Source of the DNA: a virus
Taxonomy: Duplodnaviria; Heunggongvirae; Uroviricota; Caudoviricetes
DNA: 43,152 bases
Virus record (IMG/VR): IMGVR_UViG_2778261177_000005
Reading direction: 5' to 3' (one strand)
The stretch's first letter is position 1. The number at the start of each line of letters is the position of its first letter. This document shows, piece after piece, positions 1-39,486 of the stretch. A model generated the notes under the pieces. That model was given only the letters and a program-made list of their open reading frames with translations, was not told the origin of the DNA and made no database searches. Both the position numbers and the translations under genes were made by a program.

Positions 1-84
1 ATGGCGGGTTATTTGTCCGGGTTATTCCCCCGTTGTAAAATCTCTCCTAAACTTAACGGTACGGCACCACACTTCGGGGATGAA

Positions 85-276
85 ATGTTCGCGCTGGTAC
101 TTTTTGTTTGCTACCTGGATGGCGGTTGTGAAGATATTGTTGTGGATATCTACAACACGGAACAGCAGTGTCTTTATTCTATGAGCGATCAACGGATCCG
201 CCATGGCGGTTGTTTTCCGATTGAGGATTTTATAGATGGTTTCTGGCGACCTGCACAGGAGTACGGTGATTTTTAA
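85..276 (+). CDS. yebW: small host protein, YebW-like (63 aa)
   Basis: ATG at 85 inside ORF 1..276; product MFALVLFVCYLDGGCED...EYGDF; convergent with and abutting pphA. Identity is from recollection of the K-12 yebW-pphA neighbourhood, not searched. Confidence 0.5.
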   Translation: MFALVLFVCYLDGGCEDIVVDIYNTEQQCLYSMSDQRIRHGGCFPIEDFIDGFWRPAQEYGDF

Positions 277-933
277 TTATTGCAATTGCACAAGAGTCAG
301 TTCTCCCCCAAAGACAGCACCGGTATCAATATAATGCAGGTTGCCAATATCCACGCGATGGCGCAAAGGTGTATGACCAAACCAGAAATGATCAGCACCT
401 GCAATTCCCTGCCCTTTTTGGCGTTCACCTAATCGCGAGCGGCTCCACAAGACCTGATGCAAATCGACGTCCTTTTGCCATTCATAGACATCATCTGGAT
501 AATCGGCATGAGCAATAACATGTTTGCCGGTGCGACTGTGTAATTCAAGAATAAAGGGCAGATGCTGACATTTTTCCAGCGCCGTTTTCGCTTGTTTCTG
601 TTGATTATCTGCCAGCGCAATAAACCAGTCGCCGCCATTTATCAACCATAAAGACATCTGCCGGGATGCCAGCGCATCCATCGCCATCTGTTCATGATTG
701 CCTCTTACCGAACGAACCCAATGTTGTTCCAGTAACTGCAGGCAACGTAAACTTTGCGGCCCACGATCGATAACGTCTCCCACTGAGATAAGTAAATCTC
801 GCCACGGATCAAAACGACAATGCCATAATTTGCGGCGCAACTGCTCAAGACAACCGTGTATATCGCCTGAAAGCCAGATATGTCGCCATTGATGACCCGC
901 AATTCTCTGATAAACGGGCGCAGGCTGTTTCAT
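277..933 (-). CDS. pphA: serine/threonine protein phosphatase 1 (PrpA/PphA), metallophosphoesterase
   Basis: ORF 277..936 (first codon TTG, ATG at 933); GDIHG, GDVIDRG and GNHE metallophosphatase motifs visible in the translation; host gene flanking the prophage. Confidence 0.85.
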   Translation of the reverse strand: MKQPAPVYQRIAGHQWRHIWLSGDIHGCLEQLRRKLWHCRFDPWRDLLISVGDVIDRGPQSLRCLQLLEQHWVRSVRGNHEQMAMDALASRQMSLWLINGGDWFIALADNQQKQAKTALEKCQHLPFILELHSRTGKHVIAHADYPDDVYEWQKDVDLHQVLWSRSRLGERQKGQGIAGADHFWFGHTPLRHRVDIGNLHYIDTGAVFGGELTLVQLQ

Positions 934-30865: not shown

Positions 30866-31627
30866 TCACTTTTCCGACACAATACGACTGGAGGAATCAA
30901 CAATCTGTCGAACAATATCCCGGTGCTTATTCAGCTCCCGCAGCGCGGCGCAGACACGCTCCCACTTCTGGACATGACTTTTCGCCCGACGCAGTTCGCG
31001 GTTTGCCATATGCAGCGATGGTAAAACCAGGTCATCCGCTTGCGTTTCGGCGAACGGTGGCAACGACTGCACAATATCCGCCACAGTTTCTGTTTTAATA
31101 TCTTCCTGTGTTGCAGCTTCCTGTACTGGTAACGCAACACCGGCTGGCTGAGGAAAGGCTTTACCATCAGTTTCCGCTACCGATGCCGCTTTCGGCTCTG
31201 CTGGTAAATTACCGCCCGGCATGCAGTAACGAAATTTACCGTTCTGATTAACACGAATCAGACGACCTTTGCTGATTGCCATTGCCAGCATTGAAGCCAC
31301 TTTGCGGGATGTTGTACCGAACAGCGTAGCCAGTTCATCCGCCGTTTGTGGTCCGCGTTGTTCAATCGTCGCGGTTAAATCGCACTCTGAGATTTTCGCT
31401 ACTGTCGCCGTGCTGGTTTCTTCCGGCTGTTCTTCTGGCGCTGGCTGTTCCTGCTGAACGTTGTTATCAGCCACACGCCAGGTGTATGCGCTTTTATCAA
31501 CGAAGCCAGCCTTTTTAAGTTCCCACAGCTCATTCAGCACTTCTTCACGACTGATATCAAGTCGCGCAGCCAGCTCTACCGACGTGGCTTTTCCCATCGC
31601 TTTCAGTGCGTCAAAAACAGTCTCCAT
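30866..31627 (-). CDS. double winged-helix DNA-binding protein (DUF1627-like)
   Basis: 253 aa; two wHTH-like segments ([29 protein letters not shown] and [32 protein letters not shown]) separated by a Glu/Pro/Gln-rich linker. Confidence 0.5.
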
Positions 31628-31647: not shown

Positions 31648-32394
31648 TTACTTTTCAATACCTGGCTGACCAACATTCGGGCGCCAGCTCTCCCAGTTAA
31701 AATTCACCCAGCGCCCGCCGTTCATGGTCATGCGATCCATAATCCGCTCGCCGAGCAATGTTTTCATGGCCTCATAGTTCAGGTTTGTCAGCATTCCCAC
31801 GCTACGCATCGACGCTGTCCGTCGATCAATAATCTGGTGCAGTACCACCTGCTCGTTTTTCGTCTCGCGCTGAATGCCAATTTCATCAAGAACCAGCAGA
31901 TCCACTTCGCACAGTTCCCGCAAAAATTTTTCGCCTGACTGCCCGTCGTCATAGCTGGCGTGCAGGGCGCTCATAACATCAGCCACGGTAACCACAATCA
32001 CTGTCTGACCGTCTTTCAGCAGGCGATTCCCGATAGCTGCCGCTAAGTGATTCTTCCCGGTACCAGGTTTTCCGCTGAACGCAAAATTTGTACACCCGGT
32101 CATCAGTTCATCGGCGATGGATTTCGCCTGGCTTAACGCGTATCGCTGGCCGTCGTTCTGCACCTGGTAATTCGCAAACGAGCATTTACGGTGCAACGGC
32201 TGGATGCCTGAGCGATTCAGAATTTTTTCCACCCGCAACTGGCGATTCAGGCGGTTGATCTCCTCGCTACGTTTCTGGCCTTCAGCAAGTTGCCACTCGC
32301 GCCACTCCGCAACCGTTCTGAATGGGGCGGTTACATGTGGTGGGGTCAGTCTGCGGATACGCTCCAGAACGCCTCCTGTCGCAATATTTTTCAT
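31648..32394 (-). CDS. DnaC-like helicase loader (IstB-like AAA+ ATPase)
   Basis: 248 aa; Walker [11 protein letters not shown] and Walker B LLVLDEIG visible; downstream of the O-like gene. Confidence 0.8.
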
Positions 32395-32400
32395 GGTCTG

Positions 32401-33189
32401 TTACCCCCTGAAGCCTGGCGGGATCGCACTGTCCGGCAACGAGACGGTGTTAACCTGTCGGAGCAACGTCTCAGGCCGAACACCTTTCGGCGCGAACAGG
32501 CCCTGGTATTCATTGGCGATGCTGTGTCGAATCACCTGCTCAGGTGTAAAACCCTGCTGACGGAATTTTTCCAGTTCCCGTATCGCCCCGTTAGCGCCCT
32601 GCTCCGTTCGAATCGGTTTTCGCAATGCCTGTCTGAACCGGACCCACTCATGCCAGAGTGTTTCCGGCAACCAATCGGGCAGCTCAATAGCCTCCGGCTC
32701 GAATTTTTTAGACGCTCGTTTTTGGCGAGGGGGATTTAGGGGGAGATCAGTATTTAGATCTTCCTCTTCCTCTTCCTCTGGTAGCGCTTTTTGATCCGTT
32801 TGTGTAACGCCGGCAGCGTTACCTTTTCGTTTCAGTTCACGTATTTTTGTAACTCGCTCGTTTGTAACCGCCCGTTTTTTAGAGCTTTTTCCGTTATGGC
32901 GTTCAAAGTTAGGTAGAGAAAGCCCAACGTCATTTTCGACCAGCCATCCAACCTGAATTAACGCATCAGCAAAACCAGCCATAAAAGTGATGCGATCTAT
33001 TGCACTTTTTGTAACGCCGCGAGCGTTACAATCTGCATTACCGTCTATCATTTGTTGATCCGCCCATGCCCAGAAGCGAATAACCTTCCCTAATGCGGCA
33101 TCTGGATCAATATTCAGAATCTCAGCAAGCCTGAATATTTCCGGCTTATCCGGCGTAATAACCTCGAGCTTTATCCAGTTTGAAGCCAT
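32401..33189 (-). CDS. replication initiation/replisome organiser protein (O-like, YdaU/DUF1376-like)
   Basis: 262 aa; RBS AAGGTGA; poly-Glu linker (EEEEEED); position upstream of the DnaC-like gene. Confidence 0.55.
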   Translation of the reverse strand: MASNWIKLEVITPDKPEIFRLAEILNIDPDAALGKVIRFWAWADQQMIDGNADCNARGVTKSAIDRITFMAGFADALIQVGWLVENDVGLSLPNFERHNGKSSKKRAVTNERVTKIRELKRKGNAAGVTQTDQKALPEEEEEEDLNTDLPLNPPRQKRASKKFEPEAIELPDWLPETLWHEWVRFRQALRKPIRTEQGANGAIRELEKFRQQGFTPEQVIRHSIANEYQGLFAPKGVRPETLLRQVNTVSLPDSAIPPGFRG

Positions 33190-33221
33190 TTGTTTTCACC
33201 TTGTAACGCTCGCAGCGTTAC
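32803..33221. repeat. three copies of a 19-bp palindrome GTAACGC-N5-GCGTTAC (32803..32821, 33011..33029, 33203..33221)
   Basis: Read directly: gtaacgccggcagcgttac, gtaacgccgcgagcgttac, gtaacgctcgcagcgttac; two inside the O-like gene, one just upstream of its start; about 200-bp spacing. Confidence 0.7.
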
Positions 33222-33266
33222 ATTTAACTGATACCGAACAAAACAATCCGGCACGATTAATTTCAA

Positions 33267-33689
33267 TCAATGCACTACGACAGAATCACCGGGCGACCCA
33301 CCACCGCTGAAATGTGCTTTCCGGTAAACGGCCTGGACTGCATCATCATGCGCATCAATTGCCGTACTCAACGCTTCCTGCGCCGCCAGTAATGCACGGC
33401 GTTCCAGGGTATCGAAGATGCAGAGTCGGTGACGCAGCTCGCGCGGAAGAATTGCCAGAACCGCAGGGATCAGTGTCTGAATTTTTTCCCTTTGCGCTTT
33501 CGTTTCACCTTTTAACCAACGGTGATAGATGTTCTGCTGATTATTCCAGTCCTTGCCTGGTACCAGGGGCAATTCGCCGCCCCCCTGGCGCAGATATTCT
33601 TCAGTAATTGCATTGGCTACCCACGCCTGCCCTTTTTCGGCTGCCAGGGCTAACAACACTGATTCGATGTGCTCATGCCTGATTTTCAT
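33267..33689 (-). CDS. YdaT-like protein (Rac-type early regulator/toxin family)
   Basis: 140 aa; ATGA overlap with the cro-like gene; length and sequence resemble Rac YdaT as I recall it. Confidence 0.5.
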   Translation of the reverse strand: MKIRHEHIESVLLALAAEKGQAWVANAITEEYLRQGGGELPLVPGKDWNNQQNIYHRWLKGETKAQREKIQTLIPAVLAILPRELRHRLCIFDTLERRALLAAQEALSTAIDAHDDAVQAVYRKAHFSGGGSPGDSVVVH

Positions 33690-33928
33690 GAATCAACCGC
33701 TCCTATGCTGTTTTCGCTATGCTTACCGTCTGGGGGGAATACATCGTCAAGTCCACAATGAGCGCCAAGCCGATTAAGGGTAGAAACAATTTTTCTGCAC
33801 TCCTCTAGTCCAGGGGTACGAAAATTTGCTTCGTAATTTGCCAGTCGGCTTTGTATCCACCCTAACTGAACAGCAAGTTGTCTTTGAGACAGCCCAAGCT
33901 GTTTTCGATATGTTGAAATTTTGTTCAT
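33686..33928 (-). CDS. Cro/YdaS-like HTH regulator
   Basis: 80 aa; HTH YRKQLGLSQRQLAVQLGWIQSRLANYE; strong RBS GGAGG; divergent from the repressor gene. Confidence 0.7.
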   Translation of the reverse strand: MNKISTYRKQLGLSQRQLAVQLGWIQSRLANYEANFRTPGLEECRKIVSTLNRLGAHCGLDDVFPPDGKHSENSIGAVDS

Positions 33929-34024: not shown

Positions 34025-34444
34025 ATGGAAAAAGAAAACGAAAAAATTGCCGCTAGTAGGCTCAATGACAAAATTGCAATGCGTCTTAAAGAGCGCAGGC
34101 AGAAGCTTGGTTTATCTCAAGGAAAACTTGCTGAAATCTGCGGATGGACGCAATCGCGTATAGGTAACTATGAGGCGGGCAGCAGAAATGTTGGAGTGCA
34201 TGACGCTGTCGTATTGGGAAAGGCACTTGGCATATCTCCTCCTGAGCTCCTCTTTGGAGAACAGGAATCTTCTGAATTGTGGTTAAATGAATCCCAACGA
34301 AAACTTCTTGAGTTGTTTAACCAGCTACCGGGCTCAGAACAACAACGAATGATTGAGCTATTTGAAGTCCGGCTAAAAGAAATCGATGAGTATGTAGAAA
34401 AATATTTGAGAGGCAGGCTTAAAGATAATCCCCCACCGGAGTAA
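34025..34444 (+). CDS. prophage repressor, HTH XRE-family (RacR/CI-like, no peptidase domain)
   Basis: 139 aa; HTH RQKLGLSQGKLAEICGWTQSRIGNYEAG; RBS AAGGA; divergent from the cro-like gene; followed by a terminator. Confidence 0.75.
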   Translation: MEKENEKIAASRLNDKIAMRLKERRQKLGLSQGKLAEICGWTQSRIGNYEAGSRNVGVHDAVVLGKALGISPPELLFGEQESSELWLNESQRKLLELFNQLPGSEQQRMIELFEVRLKEIDEYVEKYLRGRLKDNPPPE

Positions 34445-36357: not shown

Positions 36358-39300
36358 ATGAGCACCGATAAACAAGTTTACCCACTGTATTACGAAGCAA
36401 AAAATGACAAAGTAAGAAAACGTCTCGGTATTAAAGGCGGTTTCTACTGGGCTGAAGCGAAAAAATTATCCATTGCCATCTCCCGTGGTGCTGTTGCGAT
36501 TGACGATGCTGGCTACGATGAAGATGACTTTAAAAAACCTGTTCGCGTCAATTTGCCCGTTGTTGATGACCTTCCACCAGAAGGCGTATTTGATACGGAA
36601 TTCTGCAACCGTTACGAAAAAGGCGGGGAAGATGGCATCACAATGGTATTTATCGCGCCCTCATCCTCTGCGCAGGACAAACCAGCCAGCACTGACAATA
36701 CCAATGTTAATGGCGAAGACATGACGGAGATTGAGGAGAATATGCTACTCCCGATTTCCGGTCAGGAGCTGCCCATTCGCTGGCTTGCTCAACACGGCAG
36801 CGAAAAACCGGTAACGCACGTTTCACGCGACGAACTACAGGCATTACACATTGCACGAGCTGAAGAACTACCAGCTGTTACTGCCCTGGCTGTTTCCCAC
36901 AAAACCAGCCTGCTCGACCCGCTGGAAATTCGCGATCTCCACAAACTGGTGCGTGATACTGACAGAGTTTTCCCTAATCCAGGCAATTCAAGCCTGGGGC
37001 TGATGACTGCTTTTTTCGAAGCATACCTGGACGCAGACTACACCGATCGCGGTCTGCTGACAAAAGAGTGGATGAAAGGAAATCGTGTTTCATGCATCAC
37101 GCGCACGGCTTCCGGCGCTAATGCTGGCGGCGGGAACCTCACCGATCGCGGCGAAGGTTTCGTTCACGATCTGACGTCACTGGCGCGCGACGTAGCGACT
37201 GGCGTACTGGCTCGTTCAATGGACGTGGACATTTATAACCTTCATCCGGCACACGCTAAACGTGTCGAGGAAATTATCGCTGAAAATAAACCGCCCTTTT
37301 CTGTTTTCCGCGACAAATTCATCACCATGCCTGGCGGGCTGGATTATTCCCGCGCCATCGTGGTTGCGTCCGTAAAAGAAGCACCAATTGGGATCGAGGT
37401 TATCCCCGCACACGTCACTGAATATCTTAACAAAGTTCTGACTGAAACTGATCATGCCAACCCTGATCCAGAAATCGTGGATATTGCCTGCGGTCGTTCC
37501 TCTGCCCCGATGCCGCAGCGTGTAACAGAAGAAGAAAAACAGGATGATGAAGAAAAACTGCAACCATCTTGCGCAATGGCAGATGAACAGGCAACGGCTG
37601 AAACAGTGGAACCGGATGCAACTGAACATCATCAGGACACGCAGCCGCTGGATGCTCAGTCACAGGTAAATTCTGTTGATGCGAAATATCAGAAACTGCG
37701 GGCAGAACTCTATGAAGCCCGGAAAAACATTCCGCCCAAAAATCCTGTCGATGCAGACAAATTACTGGCTGCCTCTCGCGGAGAATTTGTTGAAGGGATT
37801 AGCGACCCGAATGATCCGAAATGGGTTAAGGGGATCCAGACCCGCGATTCTGTGTACCAGAATCAGCCAGAAACGGAACAGAACGACCCAAATACGCAAC
37901 AAAACGAGCCAGAAACGAAACAGCCTGAGCCAGTAGTGCAACAACAGGAAACGGAGAAAGTTTGCACCGCCTGCGGTAAGGCTGGCGGCGGCAACTGTCC
38001 TGACTGTGGCGCGGTGATGGGCGACGCAACGTATCAGAAAACCTTTAATGAAGAAAATCAGAATGAATATCAGGAAAAAGGTCTGGAGGAAATGGAAGGT
38101 GCTGAACATCCGCACAAGGAGAACGCTGGCAGCAATCCGCATTGCGATTGCAGTGATGAAGCTGGTGAAACGACAGCACCTGTAGTAACTGAAATCATGT
38201 GGCCGTCATATTTCGAGCCTGGCCGCTATGAAAACCTCCCGAACGAGGTTTATCACTCCGCCAACGGAATAAGCAGCACAATGCTGAAGGATGCCCGCAT
38301 CAGCCTGATGTATTACCACGGACGGCACATTGCCGGAACTATTCCGGGCGAGGAAAGTGATGCATTGCTGCGTGGGCGGATTATTCACAGTTATGTTCTG
38401 GAAACGGATAAATTCGCTGATGAGTATGCCATTCCGGTACCGGTTCCTGAATATGTGGTTACTACTTCTAACGAACTGATCGCCATCATTAAAAAACACA
38501 ATGCCAGTCTGCCAGCACTGATGACACCAGAGCAGATGAAAGAGTGGATCGAAAGCTACAACAGCACTCTTATACAGCCACTGTCGGTAAGTGCCGGGGC
38601 CGAAGAAACAGGCATCCTTTACGGTTCGCTTCCGGAGGAATTCCGGCGTATTCCTGAGGGGGAAAAACACACAGCATCAGCAATGAAAGCCTGTATTAAA
38701 GAATACAACGCAAGCCTCCCTCCTCTGCTGAAAGCCAGTGGAACACGAGAGCAGCTCCTGGAGCAAATTGAAACTGTAGATCCAGAACTGGCAAAAAAAG
38801 AACGTGCTAAATCTTTGCCTTACAACATCAGTGGCACAAAAGAGCAATTAACCGAAATCGCCCGGAAAATTCGCCCGGAACTGGTAACACTGGAGGACTG
38901 GCAAAAACGCCAGCAAGAAGAACACGCCGGGAAAACGTTTATCAGTCCGGATATGTATGAACAGGCAAAAAATATTCACGCAGCACTGCAAAACAATACT
39001 GATGCAGCAAGGCTACTCAACCACCCGGATCGCAAATCTGAAATCAGCTATTTCGGGTTTGATGAAGAAACCGGGCTGGAAATCAGGGTCCGTCCTGATA
39101 TCGAAATCCGGCTGCCATACGAAAGCATTTGCGCCGACGTGAAGTCAGTCAGCCTCGGTTATGTGCGACAGGAACGACTGAAAGATCGCCTGCACCGTGA
39201 AATTATTGAACGTGATTATCACCTCAGCGCAGCAATGTATTGCGATGTGGCAAACCTGGACAAATTTTTCTGGATCTTCGTCAACAAAGATGCTGGCTAT

Positions 39301-39486
39301 CACTGGGTGGCCGTCGTGGAAGCCTCGCAGGAACTCCTGGAACTTGGTCGACAGGAATATCGCCGGACACTACGACAGATAAACGAAGCTCTGGAGACAA
39401 ACAACTGGCCAGCACCGATTACCGAAAGTTATACCGACGAATTAAACGACTTTGATCTTCGTCGTCTTGAAGCACTGAGCATCTGA
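36358..39486 (+). CDS. exodeoxyribonuclease VIII-like recombination exonuclease (RecE-like), enlarged
   Basis: 1042 aa; central region (...[40 protein letters not shown]...) resembles Rac RecE as I recall it; zinc-ribbon [16 protein letters not shown]; divergent N- and C-terminal parts. Confidence 0.7.

Follow-up and report, generated by a model that had tools for sequence, protein, structure and literature searches.

The N-terminal domain of the lambda O protein binds dyad-symmetric units of about 19 bp, and the same holds for phages 82, 21 and phi80 and for gene 18 of P22; such lambdoid iterons differ between close phages. In iteron plasmids (F with RepE, pPS10 with RepA, R6K with pi) half-sites are used in inverted orientation (the form of dimers or operators) as well as in direct repeats spaced by one helical turn, and in P4 (alpha, with ori and crr) and R6K separated clusters of sites cooperate through the bound initiator. 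For the Rac prophage, Potrykus et al. are said to have described oriJ as an active origin in 2000 (cited in PMC11014345). Here we discuss three palindromes of the form GTAACGC-N5-GCGTTAC in and beside the replication initiator gene of a Caudoviricetes virus, the IMG/VR record IMGVR_UViG_2778261177_000005, whose full 43,152 nucleotides are referred to as the window. With a probability of roughly 0.7 we read them as the cognate binding sites of the phage's own initiator, with an origin in the linker-coding region of its gene. Such a lambda-like logic is the most economical reading of the data presented below.

The initiator gene lies at 32401-33189 on the minus strand and encodes 262 amino acids. 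Codons 1-125 (window 32815-33189) make up an N-domain, codons 126-154 a disordered linker and codons 170-262 a DnaT-like C-domain. As with lambda O and its origin, the candidate sites fall within the initiator gene, in the linker-coding segment (site 1 and its half-sites, codons ~112-136). As in lambdoid systems, the N-domain and the sites exchange as a specificity module and the loader gene stands directly downstream of the C-domain; the module also follows cro and cII-like genes, as in lambda. Unlike lambda O, the N-domain matches neither Phage_rep_O nor any other Pfam family, the C-domain is DnaT-like, and a DnaC-like loader takes the place of P. Where lambda has four tandem iterons at intervals of about 20-24 bp, the window has three exact palindromes 192 and 207 nt apart, and where the AT-rich region would stand there is a polypurine tract, with a GC content of 45-50%. 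A second cluster of sites, and in enterobacterial lineages a third, is conserved some 200-300 bp away, and from one bacterial phylum to another the sites hardly change in sequence. An earlier sequence-only reading of this DNA had already set the dispersed sites against the clustered iterons of lambda. This contrast stands in so far as two to three clusters about 200 bp apart are conserved in a non-lambda arrangement, but the linker cluster does resemble a small iteron array, because its extra half-sites follow in steps of 11-12 or 23 nt.

With the Rac prophage of Escherichia coli K-12 (YdaU-YdaV) the window shares the operon layout of cro-like gene, ydaT, initiator and ydaV. The C-terminal third of the initiator gene and the start of ydaV are 86-87% identical at the DNA level, ydaV itself is shared, and the C-terminal protein sequences are near-identical. 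Like the window gene, ydaU carries a repeat at about +147 and in the linker-coding region. Its N-domain, in contrast, is unrelated: the window initiator lacks DUF1376, and its repeat is GTAACGC instead of TGTTCAAAC. The segment is found in 1418 of 5426 complete E. coli genomes, 679 of which hold at least 80% of it. Among the genomes listed, those with a nearly complete segment have the initiator labelled 'hypothetical protein', not 'YdaU family', by the annotation pipeline PGAP. Strain RM11911, a lysogen, is 99.9% identical. oriJ has been reported as an active origin of Rac (PMC3945230).

By analogy with iteron plasmids and P4, the locus appears to combine inverted and direct half-sites with a site at the initiator's own expression signals. 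It differs from them in having no Rep_3 domain, in carrying its sites in coding sequence, and in a spacing of about 200 bp as opposed to kilobases (P4) or tandem arrays. The MAGDWIK..NFxRHNG N-domain and the in-gene clusters of half-sites are also features of phrog_2509 and of the initiators of the epsilon15/SPN1S/CP2 type, for which the name 'replication initiation protein' is a homology label only.

The palindromes and their flanking half-sites

A pattern scan of the whole window finds exactly three copies of GTAACGC-N5-GCGTTAC, at 32804-32822 (site 1), 33011-33029 (site 2) and 33203-33221 (site 3), with centre-to-centre distances of 207 and 192 nt and no further copy at up to three mismatches. 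The mean number of chance matches is 0.00, none of 100 dinucleotide-preserving shuffles containing any. Counted singly, the 7-mer half-site is present 13 times where 4.2 would be expected; the arms of the three palindromes account for six of these. The scan and the gene coordinates thereby confirm what the sequence-only reading had described, three palindromes spaced by about 200 bp with two in an O-like gene and one upstream of it, and the motif is indeed enriched here (three exact copies against 0/100 shuffles). Its start positions 33011 and 33203 were right, and 32803 was one base off.

Both intragenic palindromes are read in the same frame, and the third lies upstream of the ATG. Site 1 (gene +367..+385) covers codons 123-129, G-N-A-A-G-V-T, which an AlphaFold2 (AF2) model places at the junction of a basic helix with the disordered linker. 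Site 2 (gene +160..+178) covers codons 54-60, C-N-A-R-G-V-T, in a loop of the N-domain that lies between helices 2 and 3 and is modelled with low confidence. Site 3 is non-coding and reads GTAACGCTGCGAGCGTTAC in the sense of the gene, with perfect arms of 8 bp; it is located at -32..-14 from the initiator ATG, immediately 5' of the Shine-Dalgarno (SD) sequence AAGGTG. A promoter consensus scan finds no sigma-70-like promoter near site 3. The only feature that the promoter and terminator scan calls at any palindrome is a terminator-like hairpin at 32804-32822 on the plus strand, formed by site 1 and the following CTTTTCGTTT; it is antisense to the gene and probably incidental.

Three degenerate half-sites, each one mismatch off, flank the intragenic palindromes on the minus strand. 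GTAATGC at 33035-33041 (gene +148) lies in direct orientation 12 nt 5' of site 2, GAGTTAC at 32849-32855 (+334) has the orientation of the right arm of site 1, and GCGCTAC at 32781-32787 (+402, codons A-L-P) follows 23 nt past that right arm. The half-site at +148 is an exact GTAACGC in many relatives and the one at +334 an exact GCGTTAC in a number of them, while reverse half-sites peak at +396..+414. The sites of the window are thus less isolated than they look, since the flanking half-sites are exact in many relatives. Compared with most family members, the window gene has four extra codons, N-A-D-C (codons 51-54, 33030-33041), which amount to one 12-nt half-site unit containing the degenerate GTAATGC. 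This looks like a duplicated half-site unit and suggests that the protein can accommodate such duplications as inserts in a loop.

Selection acts on the DNA and not on the peptide

The sites are under selection as DNA, not as peptide. This was seen in 28 genes picked by protein similarity alone and thinned to less than 92% identity. For the site 2 codons G-N-A-x-S-V-T the third-position information is 1.78, 2.0, 0.94, (x), 1.78, 1.78 and 1.11 bits, with similar values for site 1, as compared to about 0.0-0.3 bits at other conserved Gly, Ala, Val, Thr and Pro codons of the same genes. Third positions within the sites are nearly invariant though the genes are only 35-70% identical. The A-L-P codons past site 1 behave alike: in relatives they read GCG TTA CCx, which is another GCGTTAC, with third positions at 1.4, 2.0 and 1.3 bits. 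Conservation in relatives, which had been named as a way of judging the motif, therefore holds at the level of nucleotides (typically 1.3-2.0 bits in the sites against about 0.0-0.3 at other conserved codons).

Further observations point the same way. Among distinct relatives the site 1 palindrome is read in frame 1 (xNAxxVT) in 67 genes and in frame 0 (VTxxAL) in 38, the frame differing between lineages, and the non-coding upstream copy shares the consensus of the coding copies, GTAACGCt-g-nn-aGCGTTACA. The motif is retained in loci of 42-64.5% GC, in genes whose GC at third codon positions (GC3) ranges from 29 to 76%. In close relatives, compared without gaps and over coding positions only (there is a 1-nt indel upstream of the ATG), variable positions number 1 of 28 in the coding arms, 4 of 10 in the centres and 42 of 372 elsewhere. 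Because two reading frames are used and synonymous positions are fixed, it is the DNA site that dictates the peptide. The earlier suggestion of structured elements maintained under coding constraint is in this respect half right: there is a constraint, but it runs the opposite way.

The sites travel with one protein domain

Which protein reads these sites? A scan of IMG/VR for two palindromes 172-202 nt apart returned at least 120 viral contigs. Among the matches listed, every contig encodes a homologue of the N-domain (34-99% identity), and the pair always sits at about +148/160 and +337..391 of its gene. In 114 distinct relatives selected by the motif, an equivalent of site 2 is present in 113 and the upstream copy, site 3, in 42. 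The converse sample consists of 66 distinct loci retrieved by peptide patterns unrelated to the motif (MAGDWIK, NFxRHNGxTA). Three exact sites occur in 24 of these, two in 31, one in seven and none in four, so that 55/66 have at least two and 62/66 at least one; the remainder hold variants with one or two mismatches. Taking the loci with three sites as those with an upstream copy, site 3 is present in 24/66 of this sample. Half-sites reach a density of 11.7 per kb at -60..+440 compared with 0.16 per kb in the flanks, a 73-fold difference. Exact sites accompany homologues in Planctomycetota, in a Pseudomonadota metagenome-assembled genome, in Mixta, Erwinia, Rahnella and Pectobacterium, and in Xanthomonas and Ralstonia phages. 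The window fits the family layout: its sites are found at +160 and +367 and its tract at +411..431, where relatives have clusters at about +148..172 and +337..414 and then a polypurine tract.

Adjacency was counted in 53 loci with at least 3 kb on either side. The N-domain stands beside the sites in 53/53 and is the sole gene that is always adjacent; other neighbours are genes for YdaT-like proteins (25/53), the C-domain (25/53), DnaC-like proteins (19/53), DUF1627 (18/53), CI-like (13/53) and Cro-like proteins (10/53). The idea that the sites serve the O-like protein as origin or initiator sites is supported by comparative data: the N-domain co-occurs in every locus examined, the half-site follows the divergence of the domain, and the tract adjoins the linker site. 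Two other candidate binders that had been proposed alongside it, the DUF1627 winged helix-turn-helix (HTH) protein and the YdaT-like protein, fare badly, the former being encoded at only 18 and the latter at only 25 of the 53 loci.

The half-site changes together with the protein subfamily. In Vibrio phage 1.211.A we find GTCACGC-N5-TTGTGAC at +149, GTCACGC at +335 and TGTCACA-N7-TGTGACA at +357. The half-site has there gone from GTAAC to GTCAC, with the matching change from GTTAC to GTGAC, and the encoded Asn becomes His (G-H-A, not G-N-A). The phiPSA1/SPN1S/epsilon15 subfamily, with proteins about 30% identical to the window initiator, has clusters of GTCCGC/GCGGAC at +54..100 and +333..389 in 76 distinct loci, spaced by 11, 13 and 11 nt. 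The order GTCCGC, GTCCGC, GCGGAC, GCGGAC is seen at +333..+392 in SPN1S and epsilon15, at +64 and +353..+394 in phiPSA1, and also in further loci of this subfamily. This series advances in steps of 11-13 nt (12 in SPN1S) and is followed directly by AGAGAAGAGAAGAGAAGAGAAGA, the second cluster standing at +54..+100. On sequence grounds, the GTCCGC/GCGGAC cluster predicts where the origin of Uetakevirus-type phages should lie.

The K-12 Rac prophage offers an example of a replaced domain. Its ydaU encodes an unrelated DUF1376-type N-domain and has a repeat of its own, TGTTCAAAC, at +147, +391, +425 and +449. In the linker-coding region this repeat occurs as two direct copies and one inverted copy, with the additional copy at +147, and the repeats are possibly the binding sites of oriJ. 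Alignments of K-12-type genomes cover only the C-terminal part (window 32380-32762), and the mosaic breakpoint lies just past the polypurine tract, which argues that N-domain, sites and tract move as one module.

A polypurine tract beside the linker cluster

At 32759-32779 on the minus strand, 24 nt from site 1, there is a polypurine tract of 21 nt that reads AGAGGAAGAGGAAGAGGAAGA in the sense of the gene and encodes P-E-E-E-E-E-E-D. It is the longest purine run of the gene and a candidate for the unwinding or loading element beside the site 1 cluster. In 150 relatives the longest purine run has a median length of 23 nt and lies at +375..+422, compared with 11 nt after codon shuffling. Genes encoding EE[KR]RRE have the identical DNA GAAGAGAAGAGAAGAGAA in 75/75 cases, in a test anchored on the peptide motif, and Arg within this motif is AGA in 150/150 cases as against 13% elsewhere in the same genes. 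The tract is thus conserved at the nucleotide level, as (GAAGA)n across two subfamilies, while the lineage of the window has (GAGGAA)n instead.

The half-sites around it are arranged with some regularity. Those of the same orientation are 11-12 or 22-23 nt apart, near helical repeats, and forward and reverse copies are unequal in number; one relative has three forward half-sites and then one reverse.

The initiator protein

Over residues 1-262 the initiator matches phrog_2509, 'replication initiation protein', with E=8.5e-89, and no Pfam family is found in it at E<=0.01, Phage_rep_O, DUF1376 and Rep_3 included. Profile and single-sequence searches find no relative of the N-domain in the PDB. 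The N-domain is predicted to be winged-helix-like, although neither a Rep_3 domain nor a clear structural match to WH1-WH2 was found in the initiator. In the AF2 model it is helical and has a helix-turn-helix with a beta-hairpin after it; residues 47-60, which include the site 2 codons, form a poorly defined loop, and a basic helix occupies 103-122. The C-domain is helical. To the disordered linker (126-154) belong the poly-Glu run, the A-L-P half-site and the greater part of site 1. For residues 170-262 there is a resemblance to the C-terminal domain of DnaT that binds single-stranded DNA (ssDNA), with E=9.2e-5 for PDB 2ru8 and 3e-4 for 9zbt. The NCBIfam DnaT match is 0.0065, far under the cut-off of the model, and PF17948 is not matched in Pfam, though some relatives do have it.

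A counterpart of residues 1 to about 145 is found, fused to various C-termini, in phages that infect Xanthomonas, Ralstonia, Vibrio, Pseudomonas and Salmonella. A single-sequence search of 1.84 billion sequences yields 6637 cluster representatives related to the N-domain at E<=1e-3.

How the origin might work and what speaks against it

We infer that a dimer of the N-domain, through its winged-helix-like fold and basic helix, recognises duplex TGTAACGC(T)-N3/5-(A)GCGTTACA. The likely origin would be a compound element in linker-coding DNA, made up of site 1, the weaker flanking half-sites and the 21-nt polypurine tract at 32759-32779. The other two sites would act as auxiliary anchors, site 2 within the gene some 200 bp to the 5' side and site 3 abutting the ribosome-binding site, and the bound dimers probably bridge or wrap some 400 bp of DNA into one nucleoprotein complex. 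At site 3 the initiator probably also damps its own expression. Once assembled, the complex would fire the origin as the DnaT-like C-domain recruits the DnaC-like loader encoded downstream and the host DnaB onto DNA opened at the tract.

An origin inside the initiator gene is of a classical kind; new here is a variant tied to a very large family for whose N-domain Pfam has no model. A more far-reaching version of the proposal, which we regard as tentative and rather doubtful, sees in it a distinct origin architecture of this very large unnamed initiator family. Dimers at two or three anchors about 200 bp apart would loop the DNA and, via the DnaT-like domain, open it and load the helicase at a sequence-invariant tract of the (GAAGA)n type, with a site that stays unchanged from Enterobacteria to Planctomycetota and is written into the protein in two frames.

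Several observations weigh against the initiator-site reading. No classical AT-rich unwinding element is seen, the GC content at the tract being 45-50%, and there is no DnaA box at up to one mismatch in 32300-33400. The palindromes are spaced by 192-219 nt with no fixed helical phase, so that looping is a conjecture. The upstream site is absent from most distant relatives and is consequently not essential to the core mechanism. Mapping the origin by GC skew was tried and dropped: the cumulative turn at about 33-35 kb coincides with a switch in gene orientation, which makes the skew uninformative on the origin. Any palindrome can also fold as RNA or ssDNA, and symmetric change in a binding site mimics compensatory change in a stem. 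Finally, searches of the accessible literature found no description of the GTAACGC motif or of such an origin. A paper on Eru and non-lambdoid Stx phages does not treat this replication module, and the phage records examined contain no annotation of an origin or binding site in these genes.

Alternative explanations

The alternative that survives best, though we consider it unlikely, takes the palindromes for operators only: by binding there, the initiator or another phage repressor would shut off the replication operon at the level of transcription or translation, and the actual origin would lie elsewhere. Site 3 abutting the SD sequence fits this, as does the lack of an AT-rich element and of a DnaA box. 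Inverted repeats of the dimer type are, moreover, the operator form in iteron plasmids (RepA/RepE). The best-conserved sites, however, are the two intragenic ones and not the upstream copy, which is present in just 42 of the 114 relatives. Nor does an operator need the nucleotide-invariant polypurine tract to which the linker cluster is coupled, and N-domain, sites and tract form one mosaic module in the way of lambdoid origin-specificity modules.

Improbable, and somewhat more so, is that the palindromes work as hairpins, either as mRNA stem-loops in translation control, processing or stability, or as ssDNA hairpins or cruciforms read by the DnaT-like domain. All three are transcribed in sense and fold as stems of 8-10 bp, the coding pair with z = -2.9 and -3.1; site 3 lies beside the ribosome-binding site, and the C-domain resembles an ssDNA-binding domain. 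The region of site 3, on the other hand, is no more stable than shuffles (z = -0.97), and a search of Rfam gives no hit at E<=1. Over genes that are 34-99% identical the arms keep an invariant sequence, without the free co-variation of a stem, and many loci that retain the sites lack the C-domain or have another in its place (present in 25/53). The extra half-sites, being direct repeats at 11-12 or 23 nt in asymmetric numbers, fit proteins arrayed on duplex DNA rather than a hairpin.

We see only a slim chance that another protein is the binder, be it the YdaT/CII-like protein, the DUF1627 winged HTH protein, Cro or CI, or a host transcription factor. Genes for several HTH proteins do lie in the vicinity, yet of the 53 loci with the sites only 25 have a YdaT gene beside them, 18 a DUF1627 gene, 10 a Cro-like and 13 a CI-like gene. 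A single host factor is argued against by hosts that span Enterobacteria to Planctomycetota and by the switch of half-site with initiator subfamily. The published YdaT box, TTGATT-N6-AATCAA (PMC9986795, PMC11879457), differs from the palindromes, and look-alikes of it occur at 33679-33696 and 33253-33270, elsewhere than at the palindromes.

Just as faint is the prospect that the sites are mainly short homologies for the shuffling of replication modules. Relaxed homologous recombination among prophages is documented (PMC3945230), sites 3 and 1 lie near module borders (the 5' end of the gene and the junction of N- and C-domain), and only some 40-60 nt separate site 1 from the breakpoint seen with K-12 Rac. 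That breakpoint, though, is found beyond the polypurine tract and not at a palindrome, and the idea leaves unexplained the palindromic symmetry, the helical-repeat spacing, the subfamily-specific half-sites and the position of site 2 in the middle of a domain.

Least likely of all, and already contradicted, is a by-product of the peptide, in which a conserved N-A-x-x-V-T and codon bias yield the palindromes and the upstream copy is coincidental: both coding sites do encode x-N-A-x-G-V-T in the same frame, but synonymous positions are fixed against codon usage over 29-76% GC3, the other frame (V-T-x-x-A-L) is used in 38 genes, a non-coding copy has the identical consensus, and site 1 falls in a predicted disordered linker.

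Binding by the phage's own initiator would supply a concrete, testable candidate for the origin and the binding site of a replication module that about 680-1400 of 5426 complete E. coli genomes carry. It would apply as well to related protein clusters, which number in the thousands and come from phages of many phyla. It would also give an example of a DNA-binding protein whose recognition site lies inside its own coding sequence and shapes its amino acids, through four-codon insertions that correspond to duplicated half-sites and through the use of two frames. In practice, the motifs GTAACGC, GTCAC and GTCCGC could be used to annotate prophage origins and incompatibility or specificity groups, and could help in building mini-replicons and in predicting cross-activation of replication among prophages.

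Neighbouring genes

Directly downstream of the initiator, at 31648-32394 on the minus strand, lies the gene of a DnaC-like helicase loader similar to YdaV (Pfam IstB_IS21/Bac_DnaA; NCBIfam PRK12377 at 1.9e-153 and DnaC at 7e-91; phrog_50), the presumed partner of the initiator C-domain. It is followed by the DUF1627 protein at 30866-31627 on the same strand. On the other side are, likewise on the minus strand, the genes of the YdaT/CII-like protein (33267-33689) and of the Cro-like HTH protein (33686-33928), and on the plus strand that of the CI-like repressor (34025-34444).

Both look-alikes of the YdaT box touch ydaT. The one at 33679-33696 reads TTGATTCATGAAAATCAG on the gene strand and has the ydaT ATG within its spacer, as is likewise the case for the YdaT box of K-12 Rac (PMC11879457). 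The other, TTGATTGAAATTAATCGT at 33253-33270, overlaps the 3' end of ydaT and lies some 30 nt to the 5' side of palindrome 3. Further away, downstream of the immunity region, an open reading frame of 1042 amino acids with a long acidic low-complexity middle occupies 36358-39486 on the plus strand.

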